Shown: positions 1 to 16,714, counted from the first letter of the stretch. The stretch: 27,588 nucleotides of DNA from Candidatus Hydrogenedentota bacterium (GCA_045863295.1 BTWA01000052.1:1-27588), one strand, 5' to 3'. Notes: generated by a model not told the origin, from the letters alone. Translations and numbers: made by a program.

Positions 1-75
1 GGCACGGCGCTCCGTTTCGTCGACCGTCCGTGCCGGGTCGATTTGCTCGACGATGGTATCCATCGATTTCGACAT
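1..75 (-). CDS. 5' part of a hypothetical protein running off the window edge; probable third paralog of the helical domain at 89-670
   Basis: Not in the ORF track. AGGAGG follows the stop of 89..670, then ATG at 75 opens MSKSMDTIVEQIDPARTVDETERRA to the edge. This resembles DLKALLATIDPDVIRRDVIEPIESA of the 560-aa protein. Confidence 0.7.
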   Translation of the reverse strand, partial: MSKSMDTIVEQIDPARTVDETERRA

Positions 76-88
76 CTTGGAACCTCCT

Positions 89-670
89 TTACAGCTGCCG
101 GAAGACCGGCGACGTTCGGCGCATGTTCTCCACGAGCGCGTCGATGATGATCCGGTAGTCGTTTGCATAGCGCGCGGGGTTGCTGAGGTCGACGGTATCG
201 GCGAGCACCGGGCCGTAGTAGTGAAAAATGTCACGGATAATTGCAACCTTGTCCTCGTATACGTTGCCTTTGATCTGGCTGTCGAAGGCCTCCTCGACGT
301 AGTCGCTTATGTCCTGCGCCTTGATACCTTCCGCGACCAAGTCGATGACGGCCTTCATACCGCCGTTAGTGCCATAGATGCCGTCATTGACTGCCGCTAC
401 GTAGCCGAGGCCACGACGCCGGTATTCGCGCTCGAGGATCGCTTTTGCCCGAGCGGCGGCGCGGCCAGGATCAATGGTGCCTCCACGTGTGACGGCAAAC
501 GTGTAGTGATGAGCATAGTAATCACCGGTGACCGCACGAAAGACATCCCAATTGGAAACACGGTTCTGGCGCAGGTGATAGCGGTTCCGTGCTTCGTCGT
601 GCCTGCTGGTGACACGGTCGGCGATGGTGATGTCACTAAGGTCGTGCATGATGGATTGGATGGTTGGCAT
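89..670 (-). CDS. Hypothetical alpha-helical protein (193 aa), paralogous to the C-terminal domain of 701..2383
   Basis: AGGAGG RBS before the ATG. Aligns by eye over its full length with the last ~190 aa of the upstream protein (GGMKAVID/GGIRYVLE; YEDKVAII/YERRVALV; PVFRQL/SVFRAL). Confidence 0.85.
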   Translation of the reverse strand: MPTIQSIMHDLSDITIADRVTSRHDEARNRYHLRQNRVSNWDVFRAVTGDYYAHHYTFAVTRGGTIDPGRAAARAKAILEREYRRRGLGYVAAVNDGIYGTNGGMKAVIDLVAEGIKAQDISDYVEEAFDSQIKGNVYEDKVAIIRDIFHYYGPVLADTVDLSNPARYANDYRIIIDALVENMRRTSPVFRQL

Positions 671-700
671 GGGGAGTCCTCCTATGGTTGTTTCTTCGGA

Positions 701-2383
701 TTAAAGGGCGCGGAAAACGCTCCTCAACGATGCCGCGGTTTGCATGTATGCCCGAACCAAGGGTTCGGGGTTCTTCAGGAACTGTTCCGGTGCGGTATCC
801 AGTTCCGTTTCGGTCAAGTACGGCCGAAACCGGTCGATTAGCGCCGCTACAAGGGCGACGCGCCGCTCGTAGCTCAGTTGTTGAAGGTGCGATTCGATAG
901 CGTGTTGGACATACATGTGCTCCTGCTCGGCGGCGTATTGACGTCCCATCCTCTCTAGCACGTACCGAATGCCGCCGTGGGGTGCGCCAGATCTTGCTTC
1001 CGCCTGCGCAGCCCGTAGACCTCCAGTATGCGCGAAAGCGCGGGCCAACAAGGCTGTGGCTTCATCTTCTACCGCATTGGAACGGACATCCTTGACCTCG
1101 TGCGTGTGCCGGAGCAAGTGCAGGTAACAGTTGGCTGGAACCGAAAGATAGCTTTCATCAGACCCGACAACCGCGCCGTCCAAACGGTAGGTGGCCATCG
1201 CGCTCTCGATAGGCTCGATTACGTCGCGACGAATGACGTCAGGATCGATGGTTGCCAAGAGAGCTTTAAGATCTGGATTTTCATCCGGCGCATCGCCGCC
1301 AGCAGCTCGTGTAACGACGGCAGGTGGGAGTTCGGGAAGCCGGTCCCCCGCGTTCGCATTAAGGAAATACCTGATGTCATCGACATCATCCGGCCGGGCC
1401 CAGGCAATGAGACGTGCCAATTCAGTCCCCGGCAGCAGCGGAAACTGAAGCCGCTTCCGGATGTAGGGCGGCAGGGTGACAAGAATGCGATAGAGATTCT
1501 CGCCGGCTCCGTGAGCGTAACTTCCCCTGCCCGCGAAGTACCGAACGAGTTCCGCCAACAGCTCGCTTGCAGAGGCCGGATCGCCATCCAGCCATTCCCG
1601 CTCAAGCGCGGACCAGAAACGGCCGTGAAGGTTGTCGAAAAGCGACTTCTCAAGTTCACTGCCCGTACGCTGCCCGCACGCTTCGTCGAAGTAGAGGTTT
1701 AGGAGCGAGGATATAACCAGGTCTCTTTCACGGAAGGCTATGCGCACGACGTCGGACAGGTCTTCCACGAAAATCACTTCAACTCGTGCGGATGCGCGGC
1801 GAAGTGCTTCCTCGATGGCGTCGTAGTCGTCCCGTGCAAGCTTACGCAATGAAGGATCCTGGCGTGGATCTGCGCACACGAATGTGCCTACGTAAGGGTC
1901 TTCGCACACGGCACGCAGTTTCGCAGGAAGACTATCGACCACTGCACATGTACCGTTGGGGTCTGAAACGTGCGCCGAGAAAACGACGTCCGAACGGCAC
2001 GGAATACCGAGGGCGGACGACAGGCACGCCATGCAAACCGCGGCGTCCGCCGAGTACCCGTTCAGTTCGAGCTTTCTGTTCTGTGCCGCAGAGATACTTA
2101 CGTTGGATACGGACAAAGTAAATTTGGCCGTCCGAAATTTGCTGATATACTTCGAAGAGAGATTCGGGGTAAGCACGTCGACGTAGTGGCGGATTGCCGC
2201 TGGGCAAACGGTCCCTGGACCAGAGGAACGAAAAAGCTCTCCTGAGTATTCGTTGATGATCTGTGCATTCACCTTTGCGATGACCGCCACGGCTTCGTTG
2301 TCCTTGCCACTGACGACTACAGTCTTCGCGCTTCCTATGGCCAGTGTGGGCGGCTTCTTCTCGATCGAATCTAACGTACGCAT
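701..2383 (-). CDS. Lon-protease-like (S16, Lon_C) domain fused to an unknown helical C-terminal domain; no AAA+ module
   Basis: NGYSADAAVCMACLSSALG...DVVFSAHV...G...VDSLPAKLRA matches the Lon pattern DGPSAG..A..SA...A.TGEI..G.V..VGG...K. Ser-Lys spacing is 44 aa versus 43 in E. coli Lon. GGAGG RBS; overlaps the upstream gene. Confidence 0.7.
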   Translation of the reverse strand: MRTLDSIEKKPPTLAIGSAKTVVVSGKDNEAVAVIAKVNAQIINEYSGELFRSSGPGTVCPAAIRHYVDVLTPNLSSKYISKFRTAKFTLSVSNVSISAAQNRKLELNGYSADAAVCMACLSSALGIPCRSDVVFSAHVSDPNGTCAVVDSLPAKLRAVCEDPYVGTFVCADPRQDPSLRKLARDDYDAIEEALRRASARVEVIFVEDLSDVVRIAFRERDLVISSLLNLYFDEACGQRTGSELEKSLFDNLHGRFWSALEREWLDGDPASASELLAELVRYFAGRGSYAHGAGENLYRILVTLPPYIRKRLQFPLLPGTELARLIAWARPDDVDDIRYFLNANAGDRLPELPPAVVTRAAGGDAPDENPDLKALLATIDPDVIRRDVIEPIESAMATYRLDGAVVGSDESYLSVPANCYLHLLRHTHEVKDVRSNAVEDEATALLARAFAHTGGLRAAQAEARSGAPHGGIRYVLERMGRQYAAEQEHMYVQHAIESHLQQLSYERRVALVAALIDRFRPYLTETELDTAPEQFLKNPEPLVRAYMQTAASLRSVFRAL

Positions 2384-3015
2384 AACAACACCTCCATCGT
2401 GGCGTTGTCCCGTCCGGGGAACACGCGGACTTCGATCTCTCCGTCTAGCAGGCGCTCATCCACCGACGCTCGCCGTGGAAGGCTTCCTGTATCCGCCGCG
2501 AAACGGATCGGTTCATCTGAAAAGGCGAACCCCGACAGAACGTGTTCGCGCCGAAGCTCGGCCTCCCAAATGATTTGACCGGTGGATAACCCAAGCTCGT
2601 AGTGGCCAGGGGTGATGGCGGGGATGGAAGCAGTCGGGTCGTTTCGGGAGAGCTTCAGGACACGCCGGAGCTGACCGCTACCTGCCAACACCAGCGACAC
2701 GGGAACTTGCTTTAGCGCATCCTCGAATACAAGATCATCAAAAAGGTGTTCGTACTCATCCAAGACGCCAATTTCTTCGGGTTCAATCGGAGCATCGTGG
2801 TCTATCGGATGCTCTGCACTGGAAACGTCCAGTCCCTTCAGATACTCGCCTCGCACGGCCTGCATGAAGACCAGGAACTGGGCGTAGCCATTCCGGTACT
2901 TCTCCTCACGGCCTAGCGTGCGAATCTTCTCCAGAGCCAGCAGAATCGCTTCCCCTCGGTTTTCCGCCCGATATGCCTCAAAAAGCAATGGAATGAAATA
3001 CAGGTCAGGGTTCAT
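2371..3015 (-). CDS. Hypothetical protein (helical N-terminus, beta-rich C-terminus); possible partner of the upstream HTH protein
   Basis: Probable start ATG 3015 (MNPDLYFIPLL) with GGAGG upstream, overlapping the end of 3005..4204. The track start at 3132 lies inside the upstream gene. Confidence 0.7.
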   Translation of the reverse strand: MNPDLYFIPLLFEAYRAENRGEAILLALEKIRTLGREEKYRNGYAQFLVFMQAVRGEYLKGLDVSSAEHPIDHDAPIEPEEIGVLDEYEHLFDDLVFEDALKQVPVSLVLAGSGQLRRVLKLSRNDPTASIPAITPGHYELGLSTGQIIWEAELRREHVLSGFAFSDEPIRFAADTGSLPRRASVDERLLDGEIEVRVFPGRDNATMEVLLCVR

Positions 3016-4204
3016 GGCGCACCTCCGAATCCGGGCTTGACTCATTACGAAGCGCTTCAACAGCGGCGCGGTACACGCCGGCACGCTCGGCCATCTCGCG
3101 TAAGATGGGATCGCGGCTAATCTCCCGAGCAACGTTCCGCCAAAGGTCTGGCATCGCGGAGTTCCACTTGCTGCCTGCGAACCGGCTGTACGCGGCCTTG
3201 GATACGCCTGCCTCGCGGGCGAGGGCGGCGTCGTTCTTCTGATCTGTTGCGAGGCCTTGCATGCGGGCCATTACGAGGGACCTCACGCCGTCTGCCCCGC
3301 ATTTGCGAATAGAGGGTTTGAGCGCATCGATACAAGTGGCCTTCTCCTCAGCGAAGTAGCGCGCCAGATCGGGATAGCCCGATCGGGCGGCCAGGTCCCG
3401 GGGATTCGGCATGGCGCTCGCCGTACACCCCAACTCGATTTCCGGATCGGATACAAAGCACGGTATGGCGAGTCGTTCATCTATGATGGATTGGACGCGT
3501 TCGCGCTCGCCTCTACGGCCGGGACAGGGGTCTTCCACGTTTTCGCGCAGCCATGCCGGGCGTTGCGGGCCGCTCAAGTACTTCGGCAAATAGACAGTGA
3601 TCGTACCCTTTCCCGGAATATTCCAGGCGTAGCGGGATTCGAAGGGATTGCGAGACTTGCGCGTTGCCTCCTGGAGAGAAAGTCCAATATGCCGCAACAC
3701 GAACCGCTGGAACACGGCACACACGGCGCTTTCGCGTTCGAGCGAATTCTGCGCGCGATTGACTTCCTGGTCCGCCAAAACGGCGTTGGCCAGCGCTTTG
3801 TAGTATTTCCGCCGGTCCGTCTTCGGCCAGTGGATGGCTTCTTCCTCTCCCTGCAGGTCTTCCGTACCAACGGGCGCGCTTTTGCGGAACTTCTCCGGTA
3901 AAGCCTCCGGCGGGAGGTTTGTGAACTTATCCAATGTCAGATCGCGCGCGGCGTCCAAGATTTCCGTTCTGTGGCGTGGCGACAACGATGCGCATCGCTC
4001 GATACCGTTCGCGACCAGGTGGTAAAGCCCGATGAAGACTTCACTGCCCTTCCAAACGAACGGCGTACGATGGTCTAGAAGCTCGTTGATGGCGCGATCA
4101 TTGACGTCTGTACACAGCACACCTATGAGCGCCTCGGTTGTATGCCGGGCAAACGGCCGCTCTACGGCTGGCTCAGTATTCTTTGGCTTGGCAATCGTAC
4201 TCAT
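3005..4204 (-). CDS. Large helical protein with C-terminal helix-turn-helix (possibly divergent sigma-factor-like)
   Basis: C-terminal NDAALAREAGVSKAAYSRF is HTH-like. ATGA overlap with the upstream small ORF. The sigma assignment is inference only. Confidence 0.6.
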   Translation of the reverse strand: MSTIAKPKNTEPAVERPFARHTTEALIGVLCTDVNDRAINELLDHRTPFVWKGSEVFIGLYHLVANGIERCASLSPRHRTEILDAARDLTLDKFTNLPPEALPEKFRKSAPVGTEDLQGEEEAIHWPKTDRRKYYKALANAVLADQEVNRAQNSLERESAVCAVFQRFVLRHIGLSLQEATRKSRNPFESRYAWNIPGKGTITVYLPKYLSGPQRPAWLRENVEDPCPGRRGERERVQSIIDERLAIPCFVSDPEIELGCTASAMPNPRDLAARSGYPDLARYFAEEKATCIDALKPSIRKCGADGVRSLVMARMQGLATDQKNDAALAREAGVSKAAYSRFAGSKWNSAMPDLWRNVAREISRDPILREMAERAGVYRAAVEALRNESSPDSEVRHEP

Positions 4205-4353
4205 GATGCCGTAACACTCCTCACTTCCATTCGCCGGTGGCGTGTACCAAGGTTGTTCATGTCCGCTTTCGCTGCACTGCGTTCAAAACGAAGCCATGTC
4301 GCCATTGGCCCAGCCTTGGCGAGAAACATCTTGTCTACGCGCTTACTCTTCAT
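4201..4353 (-). CDS. Small basic hypothetical protein (50 aa) bridging the pseudokinase and HTH genes
   Basis: ATG 4353 overlaps the kinase 3' end, and the stop overlaps the next start (ATGA at 4204-4201). No recognisable motif. Confidence 0.4.
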   Translation of the reverse strand: MKSKRVDKMFLAKAGPMATWLRFERSAAKADMNNLGTRHRRMEVRSVTAS

Positions 4354-5953
4354 GTACCGATCCAGGTTGTCTCTGCCCTTGGGTTCCTGCCAACACATCC
4401 AGTTGAGCCGCGAGGCGCAGGGCGATTTGCTTGTCGCCACGCCGAAATGCCTCATACATTTGTTCGTAAAGCTTCTGCATATGCGCGAGCTCTTCGCGTA
4501 TGCGATGCTGGAGCCCCGAAACGATTGCGCTGTCGGGATTCAGCGAGGCCGCACGTTCCAGCAGGCTAAGCGCCAGGTCCCGTTCTCCGCGCCTCAGTGC
4601 ATCTTCGGTAGCCTGTGCGAGGTCGCGGAATCGCTCGCAACGCTTGGTAAACGCGTGCTGAGCTGCACTCCGGCTGTAGTGCCCTTGGTAGAGGGACTCG
4701 GCATGCACGAGCAAGTTTGCCTGCTCCTCAAGACTGATGTGCGCATCTCCGGACGAGATGGCCGAGTAGATGCGCCGGGCCTCGGACTCTCTGCTCTCAA
4801 GCGTGTTGAGAAGGCTCCGGGCGCCGACATGCTCGGGTGATTGGATCAGAACGTTCTGACAGGCACGTACCGCGCCTTCAAGGTCGCCGTGTTCCATGCG
4901 CTCAGTAGCGATCTCCCAGGCATCCACGTCAGGAGTGGGCGAGTTCGTTTCCGGCACTGCGCCATCCGAGGAACCGGGACAGGACTTTTGTTGTGCAAAA
5001 CACGCCCCCAGAGCATGCGAAACGGACTGGTAATCGGAATATCGGCAACCAGGGTCCTTCTCCAGGCAACGGTAAACAACCGCTTGAATATTTTCGGGTA
5101 TACCAGGGAGTTGCGGGGGCGGCGCCTCCTGGTGCAGCATTGCGAGGCGATCAGGCGGGCCTTGGAACGGCGCCTGCCATTGTGGGTGCATCAGTTCGAA
5201 GAGAATGACTCCCAGCGAATATATGGTGCTGCGAACGTCGCAATGCCCAGGACTGTTGAAGCGTTCAGGCGCCAGGTACACGGCGATACTTTGAACCTTT
5301 TCGTGCAGGTTGGTGGGTACAGCGTTCTTATCGTCGCAGTACTCCAGTCCGCCGATCTTCAGGTTTTCTGAAGCTATCAGCAGATGTTCCGGGGTGACGG
5401 CCAGGTGGACTAGACCGGCCTTATCAAGGGCCTCCAGACCTTGGCAAGCCTGCTGTACGTAACGAGCCACTTCCCACGCTCGGTTGGGCGTGTCCCGGTG
5501 ACCTTCGCGCATCCACTCGGACAAGGTGCCACCATTTGCGAACTCCAAGGTTAAGATACTGATGCTTCCCCCGCCCCAGCGGCCATGATGGAGTTCCAAA
5601 GGCCGTATGATTTGCCGATGGTCACGAATTTGGGTTCTCAGGCGATTCGTTTTCAGGAACCAGTCGGGTACTTGCTCTTCGATTCCTGCATGAAGTCTAG
5701 CTGTTACTTTTTCGCCGCCAATCGTGTCCTCCAGGAGATACACCCGGCCAAGCGCATCTTCGCCGGCGCAGCCGCGAACCGTGAACCTTTCAAGAAGCAT
5801 CTCGCCTACCGGAATCTCAATGAACGTCGGCCTCCGCGGTGTCGGCTTCCCAGGAAAGTACTCCCTCGCGTCCTGCGTGAGAGCCCTGTGCTTGCATTGG
5901 CCGGCGATTTCGTGGCCACCAGCCGGAACGATTGTAGAAGTAAGGCTTTTCAT
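4343..5953 (-). CDS. Hanks-type Ser/Thr kinase-fold protein with degenerate catalytic motifs (pseudokinase) plus TPR-like C-terminus
   Basis: GRVY, LEFANGGTL, GLVHLAVTPEHLLI, LKIGGLE, YLAPE, IYSLGVILFEL and RCLEKDP..RY subdomains are present. TPR-like helices follow (GDLEGAVRACQNVLIQSPEH; ALSLLERAASLNPD). Probable start 5953, just after the stop at 5956. Confidence 0.85.
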   Translation of the reverse strand: MKSLTSTIVPAGGHEIAGQCKHRALTQDAREYFPGKPTPRRPTFIEIPVGEMLLERFTVRGCAGEDALGRVYLLEDTIGGEKVTARLHAGIEEQVPDWFLKTNRLRTQIRDHRQIIRPLELHHGRWGGGSISILTLEFANGGTLSEWMREGHRDTPNRAWEVARYVQQACQGLEALDKAGLVHLAVTPEHLLIASENLKIGGLEYCDDKNAVPTNLHEKVQSIAVYLAPERFNSPGHCDVRSTIYSLGVILFELMHPQWQAPFQGPPDRLAMLHQEAPPPQLPGIPENIQAVVYRCLEKDPGCRYSDYQSVSHALGACFAQQKSCPGSSDGAVPETNSPTPDVDAWEIATERMEHGDLEGAVRACQNVLIQSPEHVGARSLLNTLESRESEARRIYSAISSGDAHISLEEQANLLVHAESLYQGHYSRSAAQHAFTKRCERFRDLAQATEDALRRGERDLALSLLERAASLNPDSAIVSGLQHRIREELAHMQKLYEQMYEAFRRGDKQIALRLAAQLDVLAGTQGQRQPGSVHEE

Positions 5954-5955
5954 GG

Positions 5956-9780: not shown

Positions 9781-11687
9781 GGGTCGCTGTGTGACGTCAA
9801 TAGATACTCCTCGATTCCCCTCAGGATGAACTGCATCAGGATGGACTTTTCATCGTCACCAAGCCCATCGAGGTCCAGAATCGTATACCCGTGGATCAAC
9901 GAGTCCATCGAGGGAACGTTAATGCCGGGAAGGAATATGGTGCGAAGCGCGCCGGTGAAGAGTTTCTCGAGGCGAGTCAGTGACGCCGACATAAGGTTCT
10001 GGGATGTATCACCGGCATAGCCGAGCTTCTTGACCTGGCTACGCAGTTCCGGCAACAACATCTCCATGCGTGGCGGATTGTCTGGATCCGGATACCTTCG
10101 GTAGAGCTTGTAAATGGATTTGACGAGTGCCCTTTCAAACGCTGGAAAGCTTGGCAGTGATCCCATGATGCATTCCGCGACACCACGTACTTTGAGGTCC
10201 AGGGGGATGCCCTTCTTCCACGTGAAGGGATTAAATGCTCCTTCGGACACGCCTTCCGGCCCAAACGTGTAGTACTGCAGATCCTGCGCGAGGCGGCGTA
10301 CGTTTGGGTCGGAGTGATCATGCAGGAGCTTGAGGCCGGTTTGCTCTCCTGCGATGGGAGCGATGTAAAGGAACGGAACGCCGCAGCGGTGCGACTCAAA
10401 CGAGATAGTTATAAGCGATAGGGTCTTGCCGGATCCGGGAATTCCCAACGCAATGGCGCTCTGACTGGATTCGGACTCGAGCACTCCCTCCTTCCGGCCG
10501 AGTTCCCCTCTGGGGCCAACGACGACGTCTCCGAAGGAAAAAAAGATATCTGATGCTGAAACCGTCGAATCCATACTGTGGTAAATGCAGTAGGGAGAGA
10601 CTACATCAGCCACGGGCCATTGGAAGATTCCGCGGAGTTCCTGGGGGGATGCTAACTGACGGAGGTTTTGGAGGTCGCGGTAGTATGCGGGCATACCTTG
10701 CGCGGCCAAGTACTCGAAAGGACGAAGGTACTCGACATGCCCGTAGCGGACGGCGTCGACTAGATTTCCAAAGTCGGGGTCACCGCAAGGTGTTACAACC
10801 AATGCGTACGAAGCGTCTTTGAACGCGGCCATCGCCAGTGACGAGGCAACGGTTCTAGCGGTTGCTACGCGAGTCGCGAGTACACGGATAATGAAATGCA
10901 CCGATGGCCCGCGCAAATTCTCTCTGACGCGCTGAGTGCTCCTGGCTACGAGGTCGGCAGCAGGTTCCTTACGGTAAGGAAGGGGCAGCAGCCGGCGTCT
11001 TTCATCCCCAACAGCTTCATGCAAGGCGTGCGAGTCATCGAACGGCCGGTGAGCGCGCCCAATTTCGTTGAGCAACGCGCAGTGTTTCGCGAGGGCATGT
11101 CGTTGGGGCGTCGTGTCCTCCGGCTCGACGCCGATATAGATTAGTACCGGTTCCTGTACGGTATTGAATGTTCGATCCACCAGCAAGAGTTCGTTTCTGG
11201 ATTGCGGGATGAAGGGAAAGGGCTCATACAAGAGCGATGGTACGTTCGGATTCTCGCCGGCGGTGGTCACGGGAGACAGCGCCTGCTCCATGCGCACGAT
11301 ATCGCACGCTGCGCTGAAGACACTGAAGTCGATGTGAGCAGGCTCAGTGCGTTTGATTGCGTAGAGCCCATCCAAGCTGCCTTTCGAGAGCCACCCGTCT
11401 ATCCCTTCGACGATTGCCTTGTCGCGGGACGCGCCTCGCGCCATGAGACACAGCCGGTCTTGTTTCTTGTCCGGCGCATCGTTCGGAGCGTAGGACCAAA
11501 GGAGATTCATTGCGCAGGAGCCTGCGGGTTGATGCGCAACACTGTTGAGTTGCGACGAGAATTCCTTGCCCACCGTATCTTCCACCCGGTCGCCGTAGAA
11601 TTCTTTCAACCGCGGATCGCCGCGCGAGGGCAACCGGGTTGCTGCGTAGGTTTCACCCAGAGTCATCTTTGTTTGTTCTGTTCTCAT
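9762..11687 (-). CDS. N-terminal part of a HerA/FtsK-like ATPase with a long N-terminal extension
   Basis: Walker A ALGIPGSGKT, FNPF and TILDLDGL. Ends just before the expected Walker B, which is in the overlapping next frame. Probable start 11687 (ATGA overlap with the E1 stop). Confidence 0.75.
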   Translation of the reverse strand: MRTEQTKMTLGETYAATRLPSRGDPRLKEFYGDRVEDTVGKEFSSQLNSVAHQPAGSCAMNLLWSYAPNDAPDKKQDRLCLMARGASRDKAIVEGIDGWLSKGSLDGLYAIKRTEPAHIDFSVFSAACDIVRMEQALSPVTTAGENPNVPSLLYEPFPFIPQSRNELLLVDRTFNTVQEPVLIYIGVEPEDTTPQRHALAKHCALLNEIGRAHRPFDDSHALHEAVGDERRRLLPLPYRKEPAADLVARSTQRVRENLRGPSVHFIIRVLATRVATARTVASSLAMAAFKDASYALVVTPCGDPDFGNLVDAVRYGHVEYLRPFEYLAAQGMPAYYRDLQNLRQLASPQELRGIFQWPVADVVSPYCIYHSMDSTVSASDIFFSFGDVVVGPRGELGRKEGVLESESSQSAIALGIPGSGKTLSLITISFESHRCGVPFLYIAPIAGEQTGLKLLHDHSDPNVRRLAQDLQYYTFGPEGVSEGAFNPFTWKKGIPLDLKVRGVAECIMGSLPSFPAFERALVKSIYKLYRRYPDPDNPPRMEMLLPELRSQVKKLGYAGDTSQNLMSASLTRLEKLFTGALRTIFLPGINVPSMDSLIHGYTILDLDGLGDDEKSILMQFILRGIEEYLLTSHSDPCQGEG

Positions 11688-12886
11688 TTCGTTGGCTCGT
11701 ATGATCCGCAGGAGGGGCAGTGCGGGTCGCGCGGCAGAGGTAATCCATACCAACGAAGAATGGCCAGTTCGGCCACGCCGTAACCCAATGGCGGGATCCC
11801 GGCGATGGAAGTATTCGCTTCTCGGCGGTTGAACCAGATGTAGAGGGGCGCGGCGAGGTCTTCATCCAAGCTGCGGAGCGTTGACTCCTTGTCCCGCAGC
11901 AAGTGTTGAATAGCGAGCTTTGTCGCCATCGTGGCGACCGGCGCTATGTCGGTGGCAAGACCAGGTTCAATCGGCGCGGGACGGTCGCTGTAAGCAGGGG
12001 CAGTGTCCGATGGTTCACTTTGGGTCATTTCCGGGTTCGAATGGACGTGACAGCTGTAGCACGGCCCGCTACCCGGGCGCAGGATCAGGACTTGGCCGCC
12101 GTAGGCCCTCCGGCGAAGGCCTGCGAAGATGCATGCCACCGCGGAATCAAGGCATACTCGGTTCAAGATGACACGGCCTTCGTGGTTGTCCAACCCGGCG
12201 ATGACCAAGGTACTCTTCTGCACGATTTCCCTGGCTTCGCCGGAGCTTGCCCACGTGAGACGCGATTCACGTGTCTTCACCTGTACACGCGGGTTCTTAC
12301 CACGTATGAGTTCTTCTACTGAGTGGGTCTTATGCCGGCCGACGTGGCTTAGGGGCGAGGGATGGCGGCATGTGTTTCCGGGTTCCAGAACGTCGTGGTC
12401 GACGAGCGTGAACGCTCCAACACCGGCTTTTGCAAGCCCGAGCGCCACCTCGGCGCCCAGAGAGCCCACACCGAAGATCGCCACCTGCTCCTCGCGCAAC
12501 GCGTCGGTCTCAAGAAGCCCGCTTATCCGATGGAAAATGTCCCGATCATCGATAACGGTGAGCGCAGCATCCTTCCATCCTTGGTTTTCTTGAAGCCTAA
12601 CGCGACATTCCATGTGGGAGGCGGGAAGCAACCCTGCGGGAGCGGAATCAGACCGGCACGAGAGGACGATACTCGGCATCGCATCAACCGGGGACTCATC
12701 CGTCAATGTATCCAGAGGCCCGAAGAGTACGGAAATCTCGCACGGGTTACCGGAGGTGAATTCGTCTGATGCGAGAAGAGAAATGACGCCTTCCCCGGCC
12801 CAATGCCTCGCCGTCCAGCGGAACGGACCAGTGGACTTACGCAGCTCGTCCAACAGGGATTGCGGCAAGACTACACGGGGAGTCAT
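11684..12886 (-). CDS. ThiF/MoeB/E1-family adenylyltransferase with ~115-aa N-terminal extension
   Basis: IFHR; VAIFGVGSLG; LVDHDVLEPGNTCRH; GRHK; IAGLDN; zinc pairs PCYSC and CPSC. Confidence 0.93.
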   Translation of the reverse strand: MTPRVVLPQSLLDELRKSTGPFRWTARHWAGEGVISLLASDEFTSGNPCEISVLFGPLDTLTDESPVDAMPSIVLSCRSDSAPAGLLPASHMECRVRLQENQGWKDAALTVIDDRDIFHRISGLLETDALREEQVAIFGVGSLGAEVALGLAKAGVGAFTLVDHDVLEPGNTCRHPSPLSHVGRHKTHSVEELIRGKNPRVQVKTRESRLTWASSGEAREIVQKSTLVIAGLDNHEGRVILNRVCLDSAVACIFAGLRRRAYGGQVLILRPGSGPCYSCHVHSNPEMTQSEPSDTAPAYSDRPAPIEPGLATDIAPVATMATKLAIQHLLRDKESTLRSLDEDLAAPLYIWFNRREANTSIAGIPPLGYGVAELAILRWYGLPLPRDPHCPSCGSYEPTK

Positions 12887-12889
12887 CGT

Positions 12890-13093
12890 TCACGCCCATC
12901 CCAGGTCATCGACATCCACGTTCAACGTGGACTCGGGATTGTCCGACGGACTGGGTTCGCGGAAGCGATTCCGCTCCTTGTCGTACACATACCGCCGCCC
13001 TGCGCCCTGAAACCGGTTCTCCGCCTCTCCTGCAATTTGCAGACCCCGCAAAATCTCGTCGGTAAACGTGTTTGGGCTAGCATTGTCGCTCAT
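12890..13093 (-). CDS. Small acidic protein (67 aa) ending DDLGWA; candidate substrate/modifier of the E1-E2-JAB cassette
   Basis: GAGGAGG RBS and ATGA overlap with the E2 stop; ends 3 nt before the E1 start. The function is inference. Confidence 0.75.
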   Translation of the reverse strand: MSDNASPNTFTDEILRGLQIAGEAENRFQGAGRRYVYDKERNRFREPSPSDNPESTLNVDVDDLGWA

Positions 13094-13545
13094 GGGGCAT
13101 ACCTCCTCTTCAAATCCCAAAGCATGTCGTCAATCGATTGGCCGGTACGAAGATGCTGTTCGTACAAATGAATCCAAAGTTGACCACGCTGTATCACGGC
13201 CAAACACGACTTTCTCGGGTCCCAGTCCTTGCTGTGGCAGAGTCGCGTCCAGCCGAGTTCTTCACGGCGGCCCAATGTGTGAAACCGGTGAGATGGACAG
13301 GTCAAGTGATCCCCGTGATAATCGAAGAGCAGCGATGGATATGTGACGTACAGGTATGGCTCTTCGTCTGGATACCCGCTGCCCAATTCAAGCCGCAATT
13401 CATAGGGGTGGCGGAAACCGGGACAACTCTCATAGCCGACTACGTACGCCGTGCTCCAAGAAGTGAAGAAGACGAAGTGCGGCAAGAGACGGTCCAAGAC
13501 GTCCCGTTCTGCCCGAATCCGATTTTCCTGGCGCGCCGTCCACAT
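13090..13545 (-). CDS. Prokaryotic E2/ubiquitin-conjugating (UBC-fold) protein
   Basis: RIRAE N-terminal helix; YELRLELGSGYPDEEP (YP..P); H...G...LCH candidate catalytic Cys; WDP...LAVI....W. Lies between the JAB and E1 genes. Confidence 0.8.
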   Translation of the reverse strand: MWTARQENRIRAERDVLDRLLPHFVFFTSWSTAYVVGYESCPGFRHPYELRLELGSGYPDEEPYLYVTYPSLLFDYHGDHLTCPSHRFHTLGRREELGWTRLCHSKDWDPRKSCLAVIQRGQLWIHLYEQHLRTGQSIDDMLWDLKRRYAP

Positions 13546-13548
13546 GGT

Positions 13549-14616
13549 CTACTCGCTCCCCCGGTCTACAGGCTGGTTCTCACCCGGTATACCTTCGTCC
13601 TGCCCCTCGAATTGGCCTCTATCGGCACAAACATGATCAGTGCAAGAGGGTTCCGGCATCGCCTCGGGGCAATCATGATTGGACGAATCGGTCGTACCGC
13701 GGCGCTGGCTGAAAAGTGCGCCGTGCAATAACCGGCCTTCGTTCGACAGATACTGGAAAAAGCTCATGATCCTTTCGGAAAGGCGGTTGTTGTCGCACTT
13801 AAGGCGAAACTTCAGATTGGGACCGAGTCGAATCGTTACATGGAACTGGCCGTCCTGCTCGGTCACTTCACAGTAGTCGCGCAGATGATGCGGAAGTGCG
13901 AGCAATTCCTCCTCGAGCTGGCTCGGGAGAGAGCTTTCCTCGCGGGGAAAGTACGGAGTCGAAAAGCAGATGCAATTGCTTGGATGGGGAGCGCTATCAG
14001 AGCGAAGGCCCGCAGCCTTTTCGCCGGAAGCCTGAAAAGCCAGCCGGTGGGGACTGGCGGAGGGGATGGATTCGACGGGTATGGGCGACAGCAACTCCGA
14101 ATCTGTACGGAGCACAAAGGAATTGATGCATACATGAGCGCCCGCTCCGTGGGACCGGAACCGGCGTGCCGCCGGCGAACACGGTTCGCGTATTTCGCCA
14201 AGATGATGGGAGTCGTTCGAACCGATGGTGAGGATAAAGATAAGGAACTCAGCCATCCCGTTTTTCTTTGCGATTGCGGCAGCGCTCTCGATATCGCGCG
14301 GGCTTGGCGTACTAAGGCCCAAATAGTGATGTGAATGCCACGTACCCCACAGCCCAAGCCGAAAGTTGTCGACAATCCACCTATGGCTTGCATGTAGGGA
14401 GGTGAGGTCCTTCCGAAAGAAGCACGGTTCATGCACCGCGTTCGGGCCGGGTGGCGTTGCAAACGTGATGACGATATCGTTCCCGCGCGAACGATACCCG
14501 TAAAGTTCCCCGCCTGTTTCAACCGGCGCGAAATGAATTGCGTCGCCTGCGACTGCTTGGGCCTCGGACTCGAATAGCGCCACGCGATGGGCAATGCAAC
14601 TTGTCAACACGCTCAT
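13549..14616 (-). CDS. JAB/MPN (Mov34) metallopeptidase with C-terminal extension
   Basis: ETGGELYG, ATPPGPNA and GTWHSHH...PSPRD give the complete E...HxH...S..D motif. Probable start 14616 with GGAGG RBS. Confidence 0.9.
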   Translation of the reverse strand: MSVLTSCIAHRVALFESEAQAVAGDAIHFAPVETGGELYGYRSRGNDIVITFATPPGPNAVHEPCFFRKDLTSLHASHRWIVDNFRLGLWGTWHSHHYLGLSTPSPRDIESAAAIAKKNGMAEFLIFILTIGSNDSHHLGEIREPCSPAARRFRSHGAGAHVCINSFVLRTDSELLSPIPVESIPSASPHRLAFQASGEKAAGLRSDSAPHPSNCICFSTPYFPREESSLPSQLEEELLALPHHLRDYCEVTEQDGQFHVTIRLGPNLKFRLKCDNNRLSERIMSFFQYLSNEGRLLHGALFSQRRGTTDSSNHDCPEAMPEPSCTDHVCADRGQFEGQDEGIPGENQPVDRGSE

Positions 14617-14933
14617 GACCCACTCCTCCAGGAGATCACCATGCATGCACGAGAACGGTTGCATGAACTTGCGAATGCGACTAAGTCGCGTGCGTTTCTA
14701 ACAACGCGTGCAACGACAGTTGACGCTGGATGCACCGAAACCGTAGTGCCCTCACGGCGGCAGCGGCGCACACGCTTAGGCCGAGACGTTTCAATGAAAC
14801 TAGCGGGCCGGTAGCTTGGCGCAGAGCTGCCACTATGGCCGAGATGGGAAGACGTTTCCGAGAGCACGCACTCGCGACCATCAGGAATACTGCGCCGCGT
14901 GGCCGCGTTATCGGAATACCGGCTAACAAACAC
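14613..14933 (-). CDS. Possible Arg/Ser-rich hypothetical protein (~106 aa) bridging the HD and JAB genes
   Basis: GTG at 14933 with GGGAG upstream overlaps the HD stop, and its TGA overlaps the JAB ATG. No motif; could be non-coding. Confidence 0.3.
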   Translation of the reverse strand: MFVSRYSDNAATRRSIPDGRECVLSETSSHLGHSGSSAPSYRPASFIETSRPKRVRRCRREGTTVSVHPASTVVARVVRNARDLVAFASSCNRSRACMVISWRSGS

Positions 14934-15651
14934 GGCGAGCGCTCCCTTCTGCGATGAACGTGTTGGCCGCCTTGATGGATTCGTAGATCTGGTGTTCCAA
15001 GATTCGCGCGGCGTCGGTATACCGGCCAAGTCCGCCGGACTTCGTACCGCAAATGGGCAGCAGTTCGTCGCTAGTTTCGCGGATATACTCGCGCATCTTT
15101 TCCACGGAGAACGCGCCGCGCATCGAAAGCAGGTTGCTGAGCCTATCGGCCAGCTTCGGGATACGGGCTGAACGGCAGCTCCGCACCTGCGCGAAGTATT
15201 CAGCGGGATGCTCCGATTCGACCTTGGTCAGGGCGGCCACCGACGTCACTACGCGATCCGGCAGACCATACGCGTTTAGTCCCTCATTCGGCATGCGGTC
15301 ACTTGCTTCTTCGGCGGCGTCATGCATGACGGCAGAGATCAGGACATCCGCCTCGCGGACACCAGCAAGAAAAGAGAACCGGGCCGCATCTAGGAGATGG
15401 GCCAGATAAGGCTCACCGGTCCTGCGAAAGATGCCGGAATGAAGGTGGGCAGCAAGGATGATCGCGTCTCCAATCCGCATCAGTTCTGGTTTCGGAAAAG
15501 CACCATCGAGCATTTCCCACAGCCGGGAAAGGCAGGTATTCATGTAGGCGTCATACCTCGCCGGCAAATTGGTAGCTGCCAGCTCTGCGCCAGAAAGAAC
15601 TACGCGCCGACTTAGGTATATCGGGGTAGTCATCGAGACCGGAGCCTTCAT
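14923..15651 (-). CDS. RelA/SpoT-type HD-domain protein (small alarmone hydrolase/Mesh1-like)
   Basis: AAHLHSGIFRRTGEPYLAH; SAVMHDAAEE; VAALTK; KLADRLSNL. No synthetase domain. Confidence 0.9.
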   Translation of the reverse strand: MKAPVSMTTPIYLSRRVVLSGAELAATNLPARYDAYMNTCLSRLWEMLDGAFPKPELMRIGDAIILAAHLHSGIFRRTGEPYLAHLLDAARFSFLAGVREADVLISAVMHDAAEEASDRMPNEGLNAYGLPDRVVTSVAALTKVESEHPAEYFAQVRSCRSARIPKLADRLSNLLSMRGAFSVEKMREYIRETSDELLPICGTKSGGLGRYTDAARILEHQIYESIKAANTFIAEGSARRVC

Positions 15652-15836
15652 TTATCCCACCGGCGCCCAGAGCCGCCGGGCGACTTCGAGCCAGGAGCTT
15701 TCTGAAGTTTCCATGTGACTTCTGTGGCTATCCTTGATGCGGCGACTGCTCTTGCACTTTCCGGTATCCGAGATGCTCTCTGCTGCGCCTGCGTTGCACG
15801 TCGATACTCGATCCATTTCGTCGCTCTCTTAATCAC
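15648..15836 (-). CDS. Small basic hypothetical protein (62 aa)
   Basis: GTG start; its stop overlaps the HD start (ATGA). No motif. Confidence 0.35.
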   Translation of the reverse strand: MIKRATKWIEYRRATQAQQRASRIPESARAVAASRIATEVTWKLQKAPGSKSPGGSGRRWDK

Positions 15837-15982
15837 GAGTTAGGTTCTTTGATCGCACCAAACGCCAGTGCCTGGTCGTTGGGGTCCTGTAGCAACCCAC
15901 TGAAACCCGTTGACGCCATCTGCCGCTGCTACAGTGCAGCGTTATCAAAGTATTGCCTGAGATTCGCGGGGCGTCGACCTAA

Positions 15983-16006
15983 TCATTCCGAACTTGTTCG
16001 GAATGA
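15983..16006. promoter_or_regulatory. Perfect 11-bp inverted repeat with 2-nt spacer; operator-like
   Basis: TCATTCCGAAC-TT-GTTCGGAATGA, overlapping the stop codon of 15983..16714. Confidence 0.5.
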
Positions 16007-16714
16007 ATCCGAAGGAGATGATCCGTCGAGCATGGGCAGGGTGGGGCAAAAGTAGACGTTCCCCGGCGCAGCGTTCACGAAGTAAGGGGTTGGGACAGAT
16101 ATCGCCTCGGCGAACGGTGACCCTAGCTTTGATTTGACGTACTGAAGGGATTCGTTAATTTGCTTTGGGGTAACCCAGTATTCTTCAGGCGGAAATCCGT
16201 CAGATCCAAACGACCGGAAGAGCTTCCGTCCAAAATGCAAATAGGCCTCTTCCAGCTCATTGATTGTGCAGTACGCGGCAGCCCTGCCTTGGGTGGAAAA
16301 TTGCTCGTAAGTGATTAGGATATGCTTACGCACGAGTGCCCAAATGGGCACATAGCGAATCGTGGAAAGACCTTCGACGCGCCAATCGCCAGTCGTTCCA
16401 TCGAGAATGATAATCTGCCCGACCTGCGTTCGAGGCAACATGCGCCCATTGCCTACGAAGCGTCTGTCGAGCAAGTGCTCCTGTAGTATCACGACAAAGC
16501 GACTGTCAAAGAGCGGGTCAATTTCGCTGGTCATCCGAGTTATGGATTCCGCGAAAGTAACGCCTCCTACAGATAGTTCAGGATTCGGATAGCGCGAGAG
16601 CGTTAATCCGCCTTGCCACACTGGCCTCAGCAGGTGCCGCAAAAGCGCTCTCTGCTGCTCGGGAAGTCCCAGGGGCAGCGTTGATTCTTCATCTTCTCTG
16701 GCTTCGACCGGCAT
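15983..16714 (-). CDS. Hypothetical protein (243 aa), possibly with C-terminal winged helix
   Basis: Long ORF at the head of the cluster. TINELEEAY...YW..PKQINESLQYVKSKLG weakly resembles an OmpR-type wHTH. Confidence 0.6.
   Translation of the reverse strand: MPVEAREDEESTLPLGLPEQQRALLRHLLRPVWQGGLTLSRYPNPELSVGGVTFAESITRMTSEIDPLFDSRFVVILQEHLLDRRFVGNGRMLPRTQVGQIIILDGTTGDWRVEGLSTIRYVPIWALVRKHILITYEQFSTQGRAAAYCTINELEEAYLHFGRKLFRSFGSDGFPPEEYWVTPKQINESLQYVKSKLGSPFAEAISVPTPYFVNAAPGNVYFCPTLPMLDGSSPSDSFRTSSE

Follow-up and report, generated by a model that had tools for sequence, protein, structure and literature searches.

Described systems closest to the locus

In Bil operons, separate and adjacent genes encode an E1 (BilD), an E2 (BilB) and a JAB peptidase (BilC), with a small ubiquitin-like (Ubl) protein, BilA, among them (PMC11601603). 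The same layout occurs in the window, i.e., the whole 27,588-nucleotide contig of a Candidatus Hydrogenedentota bacterium analyzed here (GCA_045863295.1, BTWA01000052.1:1-27588), and the motifs of its E1, E2 and JAB proteins are all intact. The window differs from Bil, however, in that it has no beta-grasp Ubl gene, its small protein being of a hydrophilic, 59-67-aa kind modeled with low confidence as a helix and three strands; in that its cassette, rather than being free-standing, sits within a system of more than 20 genes to which it is coupled; and in that its E1 is closer in sequence to ThiF, UBA5 and MccB than to those bacterial ubiquitination E1 proteins that have solved structures. In type II CBASS, Cap2 is an E2-E1 fusion and Cap3 a JAB peptidase, and the model sets of these two proteins gave the best PADLOC matches of the window's E1 and JAB, while the best structural match of its E2 was also a CBASS E2 (8yjy_B). 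As Cap2 conjugates the C-terminus of a CD-NTase (PMC11601603), tagging with a protein other than a beta-grasp protein has a precedent in CBASS. Neither a CD-NTase nor a cyclic-nucleotide effector was found by Pfam or PADLOC, however; E1 and E2 are separate proteins, and all scores of the window's proteins are far below family level.

The HerA chains of HerA/FtsK-centered defense systems (Sir2-HerA, DUF4297-HerA, DndH-type "capture" systems, MADS MAD7-MAD8), whose motors have been proposed to intercept invader DNA (PMC12839542, PMC10853773), match both ATPases of the present system. Moreover, the second ATPase matches the PADLOC models mad8 (9e-12) and DndH, and the kinase matches mad6. In contrast to these systems, Sir2, nuclease, methyltransferase, PglZ and ORC/Cdc6 partners were not found, and no other MADS model matched (MADS composition as given in the available part of PMC13662399). 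The word "ubiquitin" occurs in neither PMC12839542 nor PMC10853773, and "JAB" does not occur in the latter. vWA-MoxR ternary conflict systems with Ubl conjugation (Kaur et al., 2020, PMC7159879) bring MoxR, STAND proteins, beta-propellers and JAB-E1-E2 together, as does the window with its MoxR pair at 21406-24395, and their neighborhoods also hold "multiple alpha-helical proteins not found elsewhere". FtsH, RING-type E3, Ubl-E2 fusion, EAD adaptor and caspase-like effector were, however, not detected in the window, nor was a vWA domain by Pfam, whereas its HerA, Lon-like and primase components lie outside the description in the available part of PMC7159879. Finally, the system's primase scores above the cut-off of the Pfam "TOTE conflict system" primase family (PF22548; 95-110 bits versus 27). 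Strong members of this family in the phylum reach approximately 320-336 bits, however, and the TOTE member inspected, in genome G094, is an 829-aa AEP-SF2 helicase fusion that adjoins a Schlafen/AlbA_2 protein elsewhere on the same contig, whereas the system's primase is stand-alone, approximately 350 aa long, and matches profile positions 59-229 only. A literature search found no paper on TOTE.

Searches of PADLOC, NCBIfam and PHROGs gave domain-level matches only and no named defense system, in agreement with the original prediction. The gene system is real, is conserved in uncultured bacteria and still has no name; it centers on two DNA-pump-like ATPases and a Lon-like protease. Its conserved core comprises two paralogous HerA/FtsK-class ATPases, a stand-alone AEP-type primase-polymerase and an ATPase-less Lon-like Ser-Lys protease, together with a Ser/Thr kinase with TPR repeats, a WD40 protein, an HTH-bearing protein and several helical proteins, and is flanked by a divergent STAND NTPase and a MoxR pair.

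Gene row and core proteins

The row lies on the minus strand at positions 89-16714 and counts 16 co-oriented ORFs, or 15 genes if a split HerA gene is counted once. By ORF coordinates, neighboring ORFs overlap or lie 3 nt apart at 11 of the 15 junctions, with ATGA overlaps read directly at the E2/small-ORF and E1/HerA junctions. The other four gaps measure 30, 138, 258 and 331 nt, which leaves room for more than one transcription unit. In a consensus promoter/terminator scan, the row had fewer sites than its shuffles. A large coupled operon of about 20 co-oriented genes had been predicted, and the row and the tightness of most junctions are borne out, but not the number of ORFs. Nor does the unit end where it had been placed, at 1-16714. 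The window is one whole contig and cuts the system, which runs on to a second HerA/FtsK-type ATPase and an AEP primase beyond the window's left end and, on the right, takes in STAND and MoxR genes. Of the modules named at the outset, E1, E2, JAB, HerA, Lon-like protease, pseudokinase and HD_4 hydrolase were confirmed, whereas the HTH match is weak. No protein of the system has a membrane-spanning stretch, which makes a secretion machine unlikely.

The HerA-like ATPase (profile A1 versus PDB HerA chains, 7e-10 to 5e-6) is encoded in two minus-strand pieces. The N-terminal piece (9762..11687) holds an N-domain of approximately 400 aa and the Walker A motif GIPGSGKT, and its start ATG overlaps the E1 stop; the C-terminal piece (8917..9780) runs from the Walker B motif LILIDELH onward and aligns to the C-terminal third of an unbroken 909-917-aa orthologue. 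The pieces overlap by 19 nt in different frames, as read directly at the frameshift junction, and Walker A and Walker B therefore lie on separate polypeptides. The split is also present in a contig from an independent study (X2, record 3, 9437-10300), with 0 gaps and 3 substitutions. Of the 10 loci with ORF calls, five have a broken HerA gene; that of G094 is intact. The gene is again split, with a clean 4-nt overlap, in two paralogous loci, suggesting that a two-subunit form is viable.

The Lon-like protein g02 (701..2383, minus strand) combines an N-terminal protease with a helical C-terminal domain and has no AAA+ module. Its single sequence gave no Pfam match, while its profile (A2) matched many Lon chains in the PDB (Lon protease domains; 1xhk, 2.4e-9), and Ser111 and Lys155, 44 residues apart, are invariant in 7/7 sequences. 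Downstream, in nine loci, lies g01 (89..670, minus strand; 193 aa, soluble), a paralogue of the C-terminal domain of g02: in tblastn, g01 additionally matches g02 genes in their 3' part, and residues 372-560 of g02 match g01 genes. Pfam, PADLOC and NCBIfam gave no match for g01. The marker family of the system is g04 (3005..4204, minus strand; 399 aa), with 578 representatives at E<=1e-3 and 416 at E<=1e-30 among 1.84 billion; all 15 members looked up were unnamed and metagenomic. It has no Pfam match and a possible C-terminal helix-turn-helix, from one weak TetR-type match (E 0.037), on which both the HTH regulator proposed at the outset and the further step to "transcriptional output" depend. 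After g04, in 13 loci, comes g03 (2371..3015, minus strand; approximately 214 aa), for which profile A11 reached only E 0.084 against the PDB and the protein atlas gave no usable match.

The kinase g05 (4343..5956, minus strand) has a Ser/Thr-kinase fold (Pkinase 4.1e-15; PknB 4.6e-17; PADLOC PD-T4-6) and a TPR-like C-terminus. In the window and G094, the VAIK Lys is replaced by Arg, the HRD Asp by Ala, the catalytic-loop Asn by His and the DFG Asp by Gly, whereas all four residues are kept in the other seven aligned homologues; the window copy is thus predicted from its motifs to be catalytically dead, i.e., a pseudokinase. The neighboring g06 (5956..7791, minus strand) has an N-terminal WD40 beta-propeller (profile A10 versus PDB WD40 proteins, 1.6e-8 and many more) and a C-terminal half without assigned family. 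Conserved between g06 and g08 is g07 (7791..8414, minus strand; 207 aa), without a family match in Pfam, PADLOC, NCBIfam or PHROGs. The 168-aa acidic coiled-coil protein g08 (8414..8920, minus strand; 52 Asp/Glu versus 22 Lys/Arg) gave weak coiled-coil-type matches only (SMC, Rad50, JetC) and is 77% identical in G094.

The E1-E2-JAB arm and its 67-aa protein

The E1-like adenylating enzyme (11684..12886, minus strand) matches ThiF (1.5e-34) and the PADLOC E1-E2 (Cap2) models (2.5e-29) and carries an extra N-terminal domain of approximately 125 aa. Its profile (A7) found ThiF (4e-20), UBA5, SAE2, MccB, Cap2 (3e-10) and BubCD (6e-6) in the PDB, and GxGxxG and two Cys pairs are invariant in 5/5 sequences. 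The E2-like protein (13090..13545, minus strand) was assigned to the UBC fold by fold and motifs; Pfam gave no match. Its AlphaFold model (pLDDT 82, pTM 0.79) retrieved almost exclusively E2/UBC or UEV-type chains among the Foldseek PDB matches listed, the best of these being CdnG-E2 (8yjy_B; E 9e-3, TM 0.59), followed by BubB and Ubc6; profile A8 matched UBE2C (0.013). His86, His89, Cys103-His104 and Trp108-Asp109 are invariant in all five sequences. In the JAB/JAMM metallopeptidase (13549..14664, minus strand), an N-terminal JAB domain of approximately 150 aa (Prok-JAB 1.8e-4; PADLOC JAB (Cap3) models 1e-11) precedes an extension of approximately 220 aa without assigned family. The metal-site motif E...HxH...S..D is intact, and ETGGE and WHSHH..L.....PS..D are kept in 4/4 aligned homologues. 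A clearly decayed STAND-JAB-E2 remnant was observed in genome G086.

Further along the arm lies an HD_4 phosphohydrolase of the RelA/SpoT-hydrolase-like type (14923..15651, minus strand; HD_4 5.9e-7, 29.8 bits versus a Pfam cut-off of 27.2; N-terminal part of TIGR00691 spoT_relA, 8.6e-8), with a 34% identical homologue in the second system copy. The "alarmone hydrolase" first proposed here thus has support at the level of the domain only. The 243-aa g15 (15983..16714, minus strand) travels with the E1-E2-JAB arm (64% identical in G094, 22% in G079); Pfam, PADLOC and NCBIfam gave no family match, and the protein atlas unnamed clusters only.

No beta-grasp Ubl is visible, as had been stated at the outset, although a conserved 67-aa ORF between E2 and E1 (12890..13093, minus strand) had been missed. 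It is translationally coupled to both neighbors, its ATG overlapping the E2 stop (ATGA) and its stop lying 3 nt before the E1 ATG. A homologue sits at this place in G094, in a Lentisphaerae MAG and in metagenome locus L044, the position thus recurring in other phyla, and in G079 the small ORF is fused in frame to the E1 N-terminus. Compared with G094, it has 11 synonymous and four non-synonymous codon differences and is under purifying selection. Four of the five homologues have no Gly-Gly end, and the AlphaFold model (pLDDT 60) shows a free tail besides one helix and three short strands. The protein may be the missing modifier (tag) of the E1/E2 pair, or an adaptor for it, and thus possibly a new kind of tag.

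The cassette had been presented as an integral part of the system. It lies directly upstream of HerA in six loci and is absent from the five others with upstream DNA available; E1-E2-JAB is thus an optional add-on.

Distribution and possible function

The co-occurrence of the modules outside the window, which the original prediction had set as a test, was confirmed in the same order in other Hydrogenedentota genera, in the Lentisphaerae MAG and in metagenome contigs. G094 has every window gene from g01 to STAND in unchanged order, and G079, which belongs to a different family, has 13 of them (g01-g10, E1, E2 and JAB), with weak g15 and STAND matches. The Lentisphaerae MAG reads JAB-E2-small-E1-HerA-g08-g07-g06-kinase-g04-g03-g02-g01, as do metagenome loci L043 and L044. 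The distribution of the HerA type is patchy: it occurs in 10 of 135 genomes of the phylum (e.g., in 1/5, 1/6 and 1/8 genomes of three genera), with up to eight matching places in one genome, and the window's genome has two system copies, between which g01-g04 are 65-89% identical. Between this genome and G094, the flanking TetR, DUF6448, HlyD and ABC genes are 86-96% identical, whereas identity among the system genes is highest for the small ORF (93%) and E1 (89%) and falls to 28-40% for g01-g04, d1 and d2; the system has diverged far more than its flanks at an orthologous site.

On the right, the row faces a divergent STAND NTPase (16988..21122, plus strand) with NB-ARC, an APAF1-type helical domain and WD40, encoded in two overlapping ORFs (16988-20209, with NB-ARC 1.6e-17, APAF1_C and WD40, and 20178-21122, with WD40), a form also seen in G094. 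STAND or NACHT proteins adjoin the system in G079, G103, G089 (C511), the Lentisphaerae MAG and the second copy in the window's genome (C55), the last assigned from weak P-loop matches only. The MoxR-type AAA+ ATPase (22794-24395, minus strand; AAA_5 1.5e-10, bpMoxR 2e-5) and its partner of approximately 500 aa without assigned family (21406-23070 as listed, minus strand, the true start being probably further in) also lie beside the system in C55 (92-96%), G103 (41-74%) and G094 (62-84%). With SUFU, a type I R-M adjoining the Zixibacteria locus and an M78 peptidase, these neighbors form a context typical of defense islands. Domain-level kinship to defense components extends to the kinase, second ATPase, primase, E1 and JAB; core proteins other than the kinase and the ATPases had no PADLOC model match, and no nuclease, NADase or pore domain was identified in the system as an effector. 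Among the sequencing runs listed, none from RNA contained the locus.

We consider it most likely, at a probability of about 0.5 and as yet unproven, that a large anti-invader (conflict) system of many soluble proteins, located on an accessory, fast-diverging chromosomal island, is represented in the window by most of one copy. The primase, the two FtsK/HerA/T4CP-like ATPases, the ParB-HTH gene beyond the primase and the multi-copy presence also fit the conserved core of an integrated mobile element, in which the AEP primase-polymerase would start replication, the ATPases would move or package DNA, and the ParB-HTH and g04 HTH proteins would bind it, with the signaling and ubiquitin-like genes as modules for regulation or as cargo. 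Besides HerA, the second ATPase matches TrwB and IcmO/DotL, with a weak TrwB_AAD_bind match; a stand-alone primase (CRISPR-associated PrimPol, 3.5e-26) lies approximately 14.5 kb from HerA in G094, G079, G103, G082 and the Lentisphaerae MAG, with two in the window's genome for its two system copies; and a ParB-HTH gene adjoins the primase on another contig of that genome (C17). However, relaxase, membrane or channel proteins and PHROGs phage family matches were all not found, and an integrase (tyrosine in G103, rve in G079) was seen 5-7 kb beyond the primase in only two of five extended loci, each time separated from it by NrdD/NrdG genes. The island occupies the same chromosomal site in two genera (flanks 86-96% identical), which argues against recent mobility, and we regard a mobile element as rather unlikely.

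We find it less probable still that the genes form a tag-directed proteolysis or protein-remodeling machine for stress signaling, in which E1 and E2 would attach the 67-aa tag, JAB would take it off again, in the manner of Rpn11 at the proteasome, the Lon-like protease would receive its substrates from a HerA-class ring, and the HD_4 hydrolase would make the machine responsive to alarmone levels. FtsK-class ATPases can move proteins, e.g., EccC in type VII secretion. ESX loci pair a Ubl, an FtsK-like ATPase, a kinase and a protease (PMC1779556). The Ser-Lys dyad of a protease without its own ATPase, the coupling of the E1-small-E2-JAB genes to the ATPase gene and the adjacent HD_4 gene, with its homologue in the second copy, also agree with such a machine. 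The cassette is, however, missing from 5/11 informative loci, so that tagging is not essential to the core; the Lon-like gene lies seven ORFs from HerA, and in the Zixibacteria locus it occurs with g01, g03 and g04 in another arrangement; the solved HerA relatives matched are all DNA- or defense-associated; and a primase and hyper-divergence are hard to square with housekeeping proteostasis. That the row is a chance accretion or dead relic without joint function in this organism seems very improbable. The split HerA and dead kinase, the decayed remnant in G086 and a frameshifted ParB-HTH gene in G094 would fit decay, but gene order is kept across phyla, the other 14 ORFs are unbroken and as long as their orthologues, the small ORF's codon differences are mostly synonymous, the split HerA may be a working form, and the dead kinase, common to G094 with its intact HerA, is therefore an old, tolerated state. 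The window copy itself may be partly disabled, given that split and that kinase.

For an anti-invader system, we infer from gene content, order, conservation, folds and motifs that the STAND, WD40 and TPR proteins would sense, the kinase would serve as relay or scaffold, the HerA/FtsK rings would grip nucleic acid, and the Lon-like protease, with further partners, would act in execution or regulation. In approximately half of the loci, the window's included, the JAB-E2-small protein-E1 cassette adjoins the HerA gene and is directly coupled to it. There, E1 would most likely adenylate the C-terminus of the 67-aa protein, possibly after JAB has trimmed it to a conserved Gly, and E2 would hand it to a system component or invader protein; such tagging could tune or arm the system, like Cap2/Cap3 in CBASS and BilABCD in Bil.

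At the far right of the window, a SUFU-family protein (24533-25156, plus strand; SUFU 7.6e-26), followed by a small ORF, and a DUF2201_N putative metallopeptidase (25860-27170, minus strand; 1.8e-4) mark a stretch (24533..27170) that is syntenic in G094.

A conserved gene set and its extent

The window carries a real, conserved and unnamed multi-gene system. ORF calls on the minus strand of 89-16714 gave 16 ORFs, all in one direction and fewer than the about 20 genes originally predicted, in the order g01, Lon-like g02, g03, marker g04, kinase g05, WD40 protein g06, g07, g08, a split HerA, E1, a small ORF, E2, JAB, g14 and g15. The window is one entire contig (C52, 27,588 nt) of a host genome that amounts to 6.3 Mb in 88 contigs and is 96% complete. 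Overlaps or 3-nt gaps account for 11 of the 15 junctions in this row, and the remaining four measure 30, 138, 258 and 331 nt. By direct reading of the bases, ATGA overlaps join the E2 stop to the small-ORF start and the E1 stop to the HerA start, and 3 nt separate the small-ORF stop from the E1 ATG. Given the four longer gaps, strict coupling is limited to JAB through g05 and g04 through g02; the single coupled operon of the original prediction thus holds for these two stretches, but not for the whole row. A consensus scan found fewer promoter-like (5) and terminator-like (12) sites than the shuffle means, Rfam gave no match in the whole window, and the sequencing runs listed for the locus included none of RNA.

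The modules recur together elsewhere, as judged by tblastn of the window proteins on fetched loci. All genes from g01 to the STAND NTPase are present in the same order in G094, a Hydrogenedentota genome of a different genus, while G079, from a different family, carries g01-g10, E1, E2 and JAB, with weak matches to g15 and STAND. A Lentisphaerae MAG has the order JAB-E2-small-E1-HerA-g08-g07-g06-kinase-g04-g03-g02-g01, and the metagenome contigs L043 and L044 have the same. The core without E1-E2-JAB was found as a second copy in the host genome (contig C55), in G103 and on several contigs of G089, both of these being further Hydrogenedentota genomes. Counting only loci with DNA upstream of HerA, E1 lies directly upstream in six (window, G094, G079, Lentisphaerae MAG, L043 and L044) and no E1 is seen there in five (C55, G103 and the G089 contigs C511, C300 and C676). 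The E1-E2-JAB cassette is an optional module on a HerA/FtsK-Lon-kinase-primase system.

Within the phylum, the HerA type occurs in 10 of 135 genomes and the E2 type in 4 of 135, with the latter also present in 2 of the 401 genomes sampled from the phylum of the Lentisphaerae MAG. A genome-collection scan with a single HerA protein yielded 82 pattern matches, none of them confirmed; for g04, the query was a 4-sequence alignment. At E<=1e-3 the g04 family counts 578 representatives among 1.84 billion, a number that falls to 416 at E<=1e-30, and all 15 members looked up were unnamed and metagenomic. Word-index homologue searches likewise yielded few proteins (2 and 11), none with a name beyond 'hypothetical'. 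In a Zixibacteriota MAG, g04-g03-g02-g01 adjoin a type I restriction-modification methylase and specificity subunit; other genes and then an ATPase of the second type follow g01, and the HerA-kinase-WD40 block is missing.

The window holds the system incompletely, with further genes lying beyond g01. In G094 and the Lentisphaerae MAG, four more genes are present downstream of g01, encoding a protein of about 190-250 aa, a second ATPase of 826-858 aa (35% identity between these two phyla), a protein of about 210 aa and an AEP primase that stands alone and exceeds the Pfam cut-off for AEP-TOTE. The same four genes are found in G079, in G103, at the start of host contig C17 and at the end of host contig C23. 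Since the G094 locus and the C17 flank (TetR, DUF6448, HlyD, ABC) are syntenic, the window contig most likely runs on into C17. Directly past the primase lies a ParB-type HTH gene, at 5795-6406 of the C17 locus and about 11300-11850 of locus L045; its G094 counterpart matches in three frames and looks frameshifted. In G079 and G103, the primase is followed by NrdD and its activase (anaerobic ribonucleotide reductase) and then by an integrase, of the rve type in G079 and a tyrosine recombinase in G103.

On the other side of the row, the STAND NTPase (16988-21122, plus strand) consists of an NB-ARC, helical and WD40 ORF that overlaps a 314-aa WD40 ORF by 32 nt. The two-ORF form is also seen in G094, and reflects a split or a frameshift that has been conserved. 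A second module at 21406-27170 comprises a MoxR-type AAA+ ATPase, its partner (about 500 aa), a protein of the SUFU family and a putative DUF2201_N metallopeptidase. This module is found next to the system at three other loci, with 92-96% identity in the host's second copy, and a vWA domain was not detected in it. STAND, the MoxR ATPase with its unknown partner and the DUF2201_N protein are again neighbours of the system in C55, G103 and G094. The second copy (C55 and C23) is a mosaic in which g01-g04 and the MoxR pair are 65-96% identical to the window, the HerA, WD40 protein and kinase reach only 24-30% identity, and E1-E2-JAB is missing; its kinase and HD genes lie upstream of HerA.

The cassette and a candidate protein tag

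E1, E2 and JAB are encoded by separate adjacent genes, with 3-nt gaps or ATGA overlaps. E1 (11684-12886) matches ThiF at 1.5e-34. JAB matches Pfam weakly and PADLOC JAB models at 1e-11, and its metal-site Glu and HxH...S..D are retained in all four homologues. The E2 ORF (13090-13545, 151 aa), which lies between JAB and E1, had no Pfam match. In an alignment of five E2 sequences, YP-x-x-x-P and H-x-[FW]-H motifs are nevertheless seen, and an invariant Cys-His precedes Trp-Asp; the corresponding profile reached UBE2C chains in the PDB at 0.013. The E2 AlphaFold model (pLDDT 82) matched nearly exclusively E2/UBC or UEV-type chains, the best being the CBASS E2 8yjy_B (E 9e-3, TM 0.59), followed by BubB and Ubc6. 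E1 carries about 125 additional N-terminal residues, and its alignment to MccB begins at chain residue 107. The N-terminal domain of MccB clamps the peptide substrate.

Between E2 and E1 lies a 67-aa ORF (12890-13093) that was absent from the original gene list. Of its codon differences from the G094 orthologue, 11 are synonymous and 4 non-synonymous; the Lentisphaerae MAG and L044 carry homologues in the same slot, and in G079 the ORF is fused in frame to the E1 N-terminus. Together, these observations show that the ORF is a real gene. Members of the family are 59-67 aa long and have in common a hairpin region with Tyr/Trp-Asp, an invariant Pro and, at the C-terminus, Asp-x-hydrophobic-Gly. 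The protein ends in ...DDLGWA in the window and G094, ...DDLIVGGTTD in the Lentisphaerae MAG and ...MDHFGL in L044, and reads ...GDLGWG in G079 before continuing into E1. Ubiquitin-type precursors carry residues beyond the Gly until a peptidase trims them.

The original prediction that no beta-grasp Ubl is visible was confirmed, in that no ORF matched a beta-grasp family and the AlphaFold model of the small protein showed a helix, three short strands and a free tail rather than the beta-grasp order; with a pLDDT of 60, a very divergent beta-grasp could still be concealed here. Complex prediction for E1 and the 67-aa protein, run without controls, gave a best score of 0.29 against a mark of 0.32. 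We tentatively propose, while considering it doubtful, that the 59-67-aa protein is a new, non-beta-grasp tag. JAB would trim it to the conserved Asp-x-hydrophobic-Gly end, E1 with its additional N-terminal domain would activate the trimmed form, and the UBC-fold E2 would take it over. In the boldest version, the tag would send targets to a HerA-class ring that works with the Lon-like protease, itself devoid of an ATPase, in an independent parallel to ubiquitin-proteasome logic. Among the elements of the system open to testing, this candidate tag is the most novel. If the proposal were true, it would add a third bacterial protein-tagging route to the Pup and Ubl systems. A modifier of this kind would mean that an E1/E2 cascade can use a separately encoded tag without a ubiquitin fold, which would bear on the origin of ubiquitin-type signalling.

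Two further loci carry related cassette genes away from the core system. A small PVC-group genome encodes a JAB-E2-E1 set of the same family (locus L059, 14024-16830) with no small ORF, followed by unknown proteins of 408 and 923 aa that lack Pfam matches. In the Hydrogenedentota genome G086, a decayed relic (locus L056, about 6700-10335) has a STAND gene pointing away from a JAB gene that is read in two frames, together with an E2 gene whose C-terminus is aberrant; neither E1 nor HerA lies nearby.

ATPases, protease and kinase

The window HerA has Walker A GIPGSGKT and Walker B LILIDELH motifs, and its profile matches solved HerA chains in the PDB at 7e-10 to 5e-6; single HerA sequences gave no DUF87 match in Pfam. 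The gene is read in two frames, with Walker A on a 641-aa piece and Walker B on a 287-aa piece, whereas the unbroken orthologue is a single protein of 909-917 aa. A contig from an independent study spans 9437-10300 with 0 gaps and 3 substitutions, so the frameshift is not one sample's assembly slip. HerA is interrupted in 5 of 10 loci with ORF calls: two breaks lie directly before Walker B, one is caused by an in-frame TAG, and two, in a pair of G089 paralogues, lie directly after Walker B with a 4-nt overlap. These interruptions represent either decay or workable two-subunit forms. The second ATPase, encoded beyond g01, matches PDB chains of HerA, TrwB and IcmO as well as PADLOC mad8 (9e-12), and is a paralogue of the window HerA (hhalign probability 98.3% over 367 columns).

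By profile search, g02 (560 aa) matches Lon proteolytic domains at 2.4e-9, and the Ser111-Lys155 dyad is invariant in 7 of 7 sequences. It shares this dyad with Lon (MEROPS S16) but lacks the fused AAA+ module: an N-terminal Lon-like domain is followed by a helical domain, with no AAA match and no P-loop motif. Kinase g05 aligns to PknB at 4.6e-17. All four catalytic residues are replaced in the window (VAIK Lys to Arg, HRD Asp to Ala, loop Asn to His and DFG Asp to Gly), a state shared with G094, whereas seven other homologues retain all four. The pseudokinase assignment therefore applies to this lineage but not to the family. As for the remaining row proteins, g06 is a WD40 propeller, and g14 (14923-15651) scores 29.8 bits for HD_4 against a Pfam cut-off of 27.2 and contains the HD dipeptide; by its HD_4 domain, g14 is a predicted RelA/SpoT-type (p)ppGpp or small alarmone hydrolase. 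The HTH match of g04 is weak (E 0.037). Family, PHROGs and profile or atlas searches gave no informative match for g01, g03, g07, g08 and g15; the best PDB hit of the g03 profile had an E of 0.084, and the protein atlas returned for g03 and g15 no usable match or only unnamed clusters, with structure rows at TM about 0.3.

Named systems and the likely role

The combination matches no named system, as originally predicted, and a literature search, mostly outside subscription journals and supplementary tables, found no paper describing it. Bil resembles the cassette in having separate E1, E2 and JAB genes in one operon; Bil membership was rejected because BilA, its beta-grasp Ubl, was not found in the row. 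Type II CBASS was likewise rejected. Pfam and PADLOC detected no CD-NTase or CBASS effector in the 16 row ORFs or the STAND ORFs, nor did Pfam, or PADLOC on five ORFs, in the right-hand region, which bears out the predicted lack of a visible CD-NTase; moreover, Cap2 is an E2-E1 fusion, whereas E2 and E1 are separate here with another ORF between them. Bub (6E/DUF6527) is characterized, in passages of PMC11601603, by the DUF6527 serine protease BubE and by Ubl-E2 or JAB-E1 fusions. Neither a DUF6527 match (Pfam) nor such fusions were found in the window, and BubB ranks only second among the structural matches of E2, with BubCD matching E1 at only 6e-6; Bub was thus rejected.

Going by passages of the sources, HerA/FtsK-centred 'capture' systems (PMC12839542, PMC10853773) and MADS (PMC13662399) have only domain classes in common with the window system. 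MADS is an eight-gene set with a methyltransferase and MAD3/4 and MAD7/8 modules; we found only mad6-like kinase and mad8-like ATPase domains and no methyltransferase, the NCBIfam MADS6 match reached 70.9 bits against a cut-off of 460, and MADS was rejected. BREX was considered and rejected. According to passages of Kaur et al. 2020 (PMC7159879), the vWA-MoxR ternary systems join MoxR to JAB-E1-E2 genes and to helical proteins of their own, and they also include FtsH, a RING E3 and a Ubl-E2 fusion; these last three were not seen here. An ESX-like secretion machine was ruled out, as the 19-residue Kyte-Doolittle maximum is 1.86, with peaks in globular cores and no membrane-type segment. The system is unnamed, with most of its proteins lacking Pfam coverage and its marker protein present in at least 416 sequence clusters. 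It constitutes a fourth setting for bacterial E1-E2-JAB cassettes, beside the three currently known (CBASS, Bil and Bub).

An anti-invader role is the best-supported reading, to which we assign a probability of about 0.5. Flanking host genes are 86-96% identical between the host genome and G094, whereas identity within the island ranges from 93% (small ORF), 89% (E1) and 86% (E2) through 77% (g08), 62% (HerA) and 56% (kinase) to 31-35% for g01-g04; via C17, the second ATPase is 40% and the further gene d2 28% identical. Window g01-g04 are 65-89% identical to the second copy in the same genome, where HerA is only 28% identical. This uneven identity, set against the conserved flanks, and the mosaic second copy amount to the replacement of modules at one fixed site, as would be expected of arms-race genes. 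The main rival, namely that the genes are the core of a mobile element, appears unlikely to us. Integrase genes are present in two of five extended loci, each 5-7 kb past the primase, and 14 ORFs searched against PHROGs gave only two marginal matches (E about 2e-3), both to families whose function is unknown. The loci offer clean natural contrasts for experimental work: cassette present or absent, kinase active or dead, and HerA fused or split.

Our literature search found no paper on TOTE; by Pfam naming, the AEP-TOTE primase occurs only outside the window, on C17, C23 and the orthologous loci. Canonical TOTE was rejected, as the AEP-helicase fusion is not present at the system locus. In G094, a canonical AEP-TOTE was observed 47 kb from the system, as an 829-aa primase-SF2 helicase fusion (6744-10864 of locus L051, G094:C20:24000-43000) that adjoins a Schlafen/AlbA_2-HATPase_c_4 protein and is a separate candidate conflict module.
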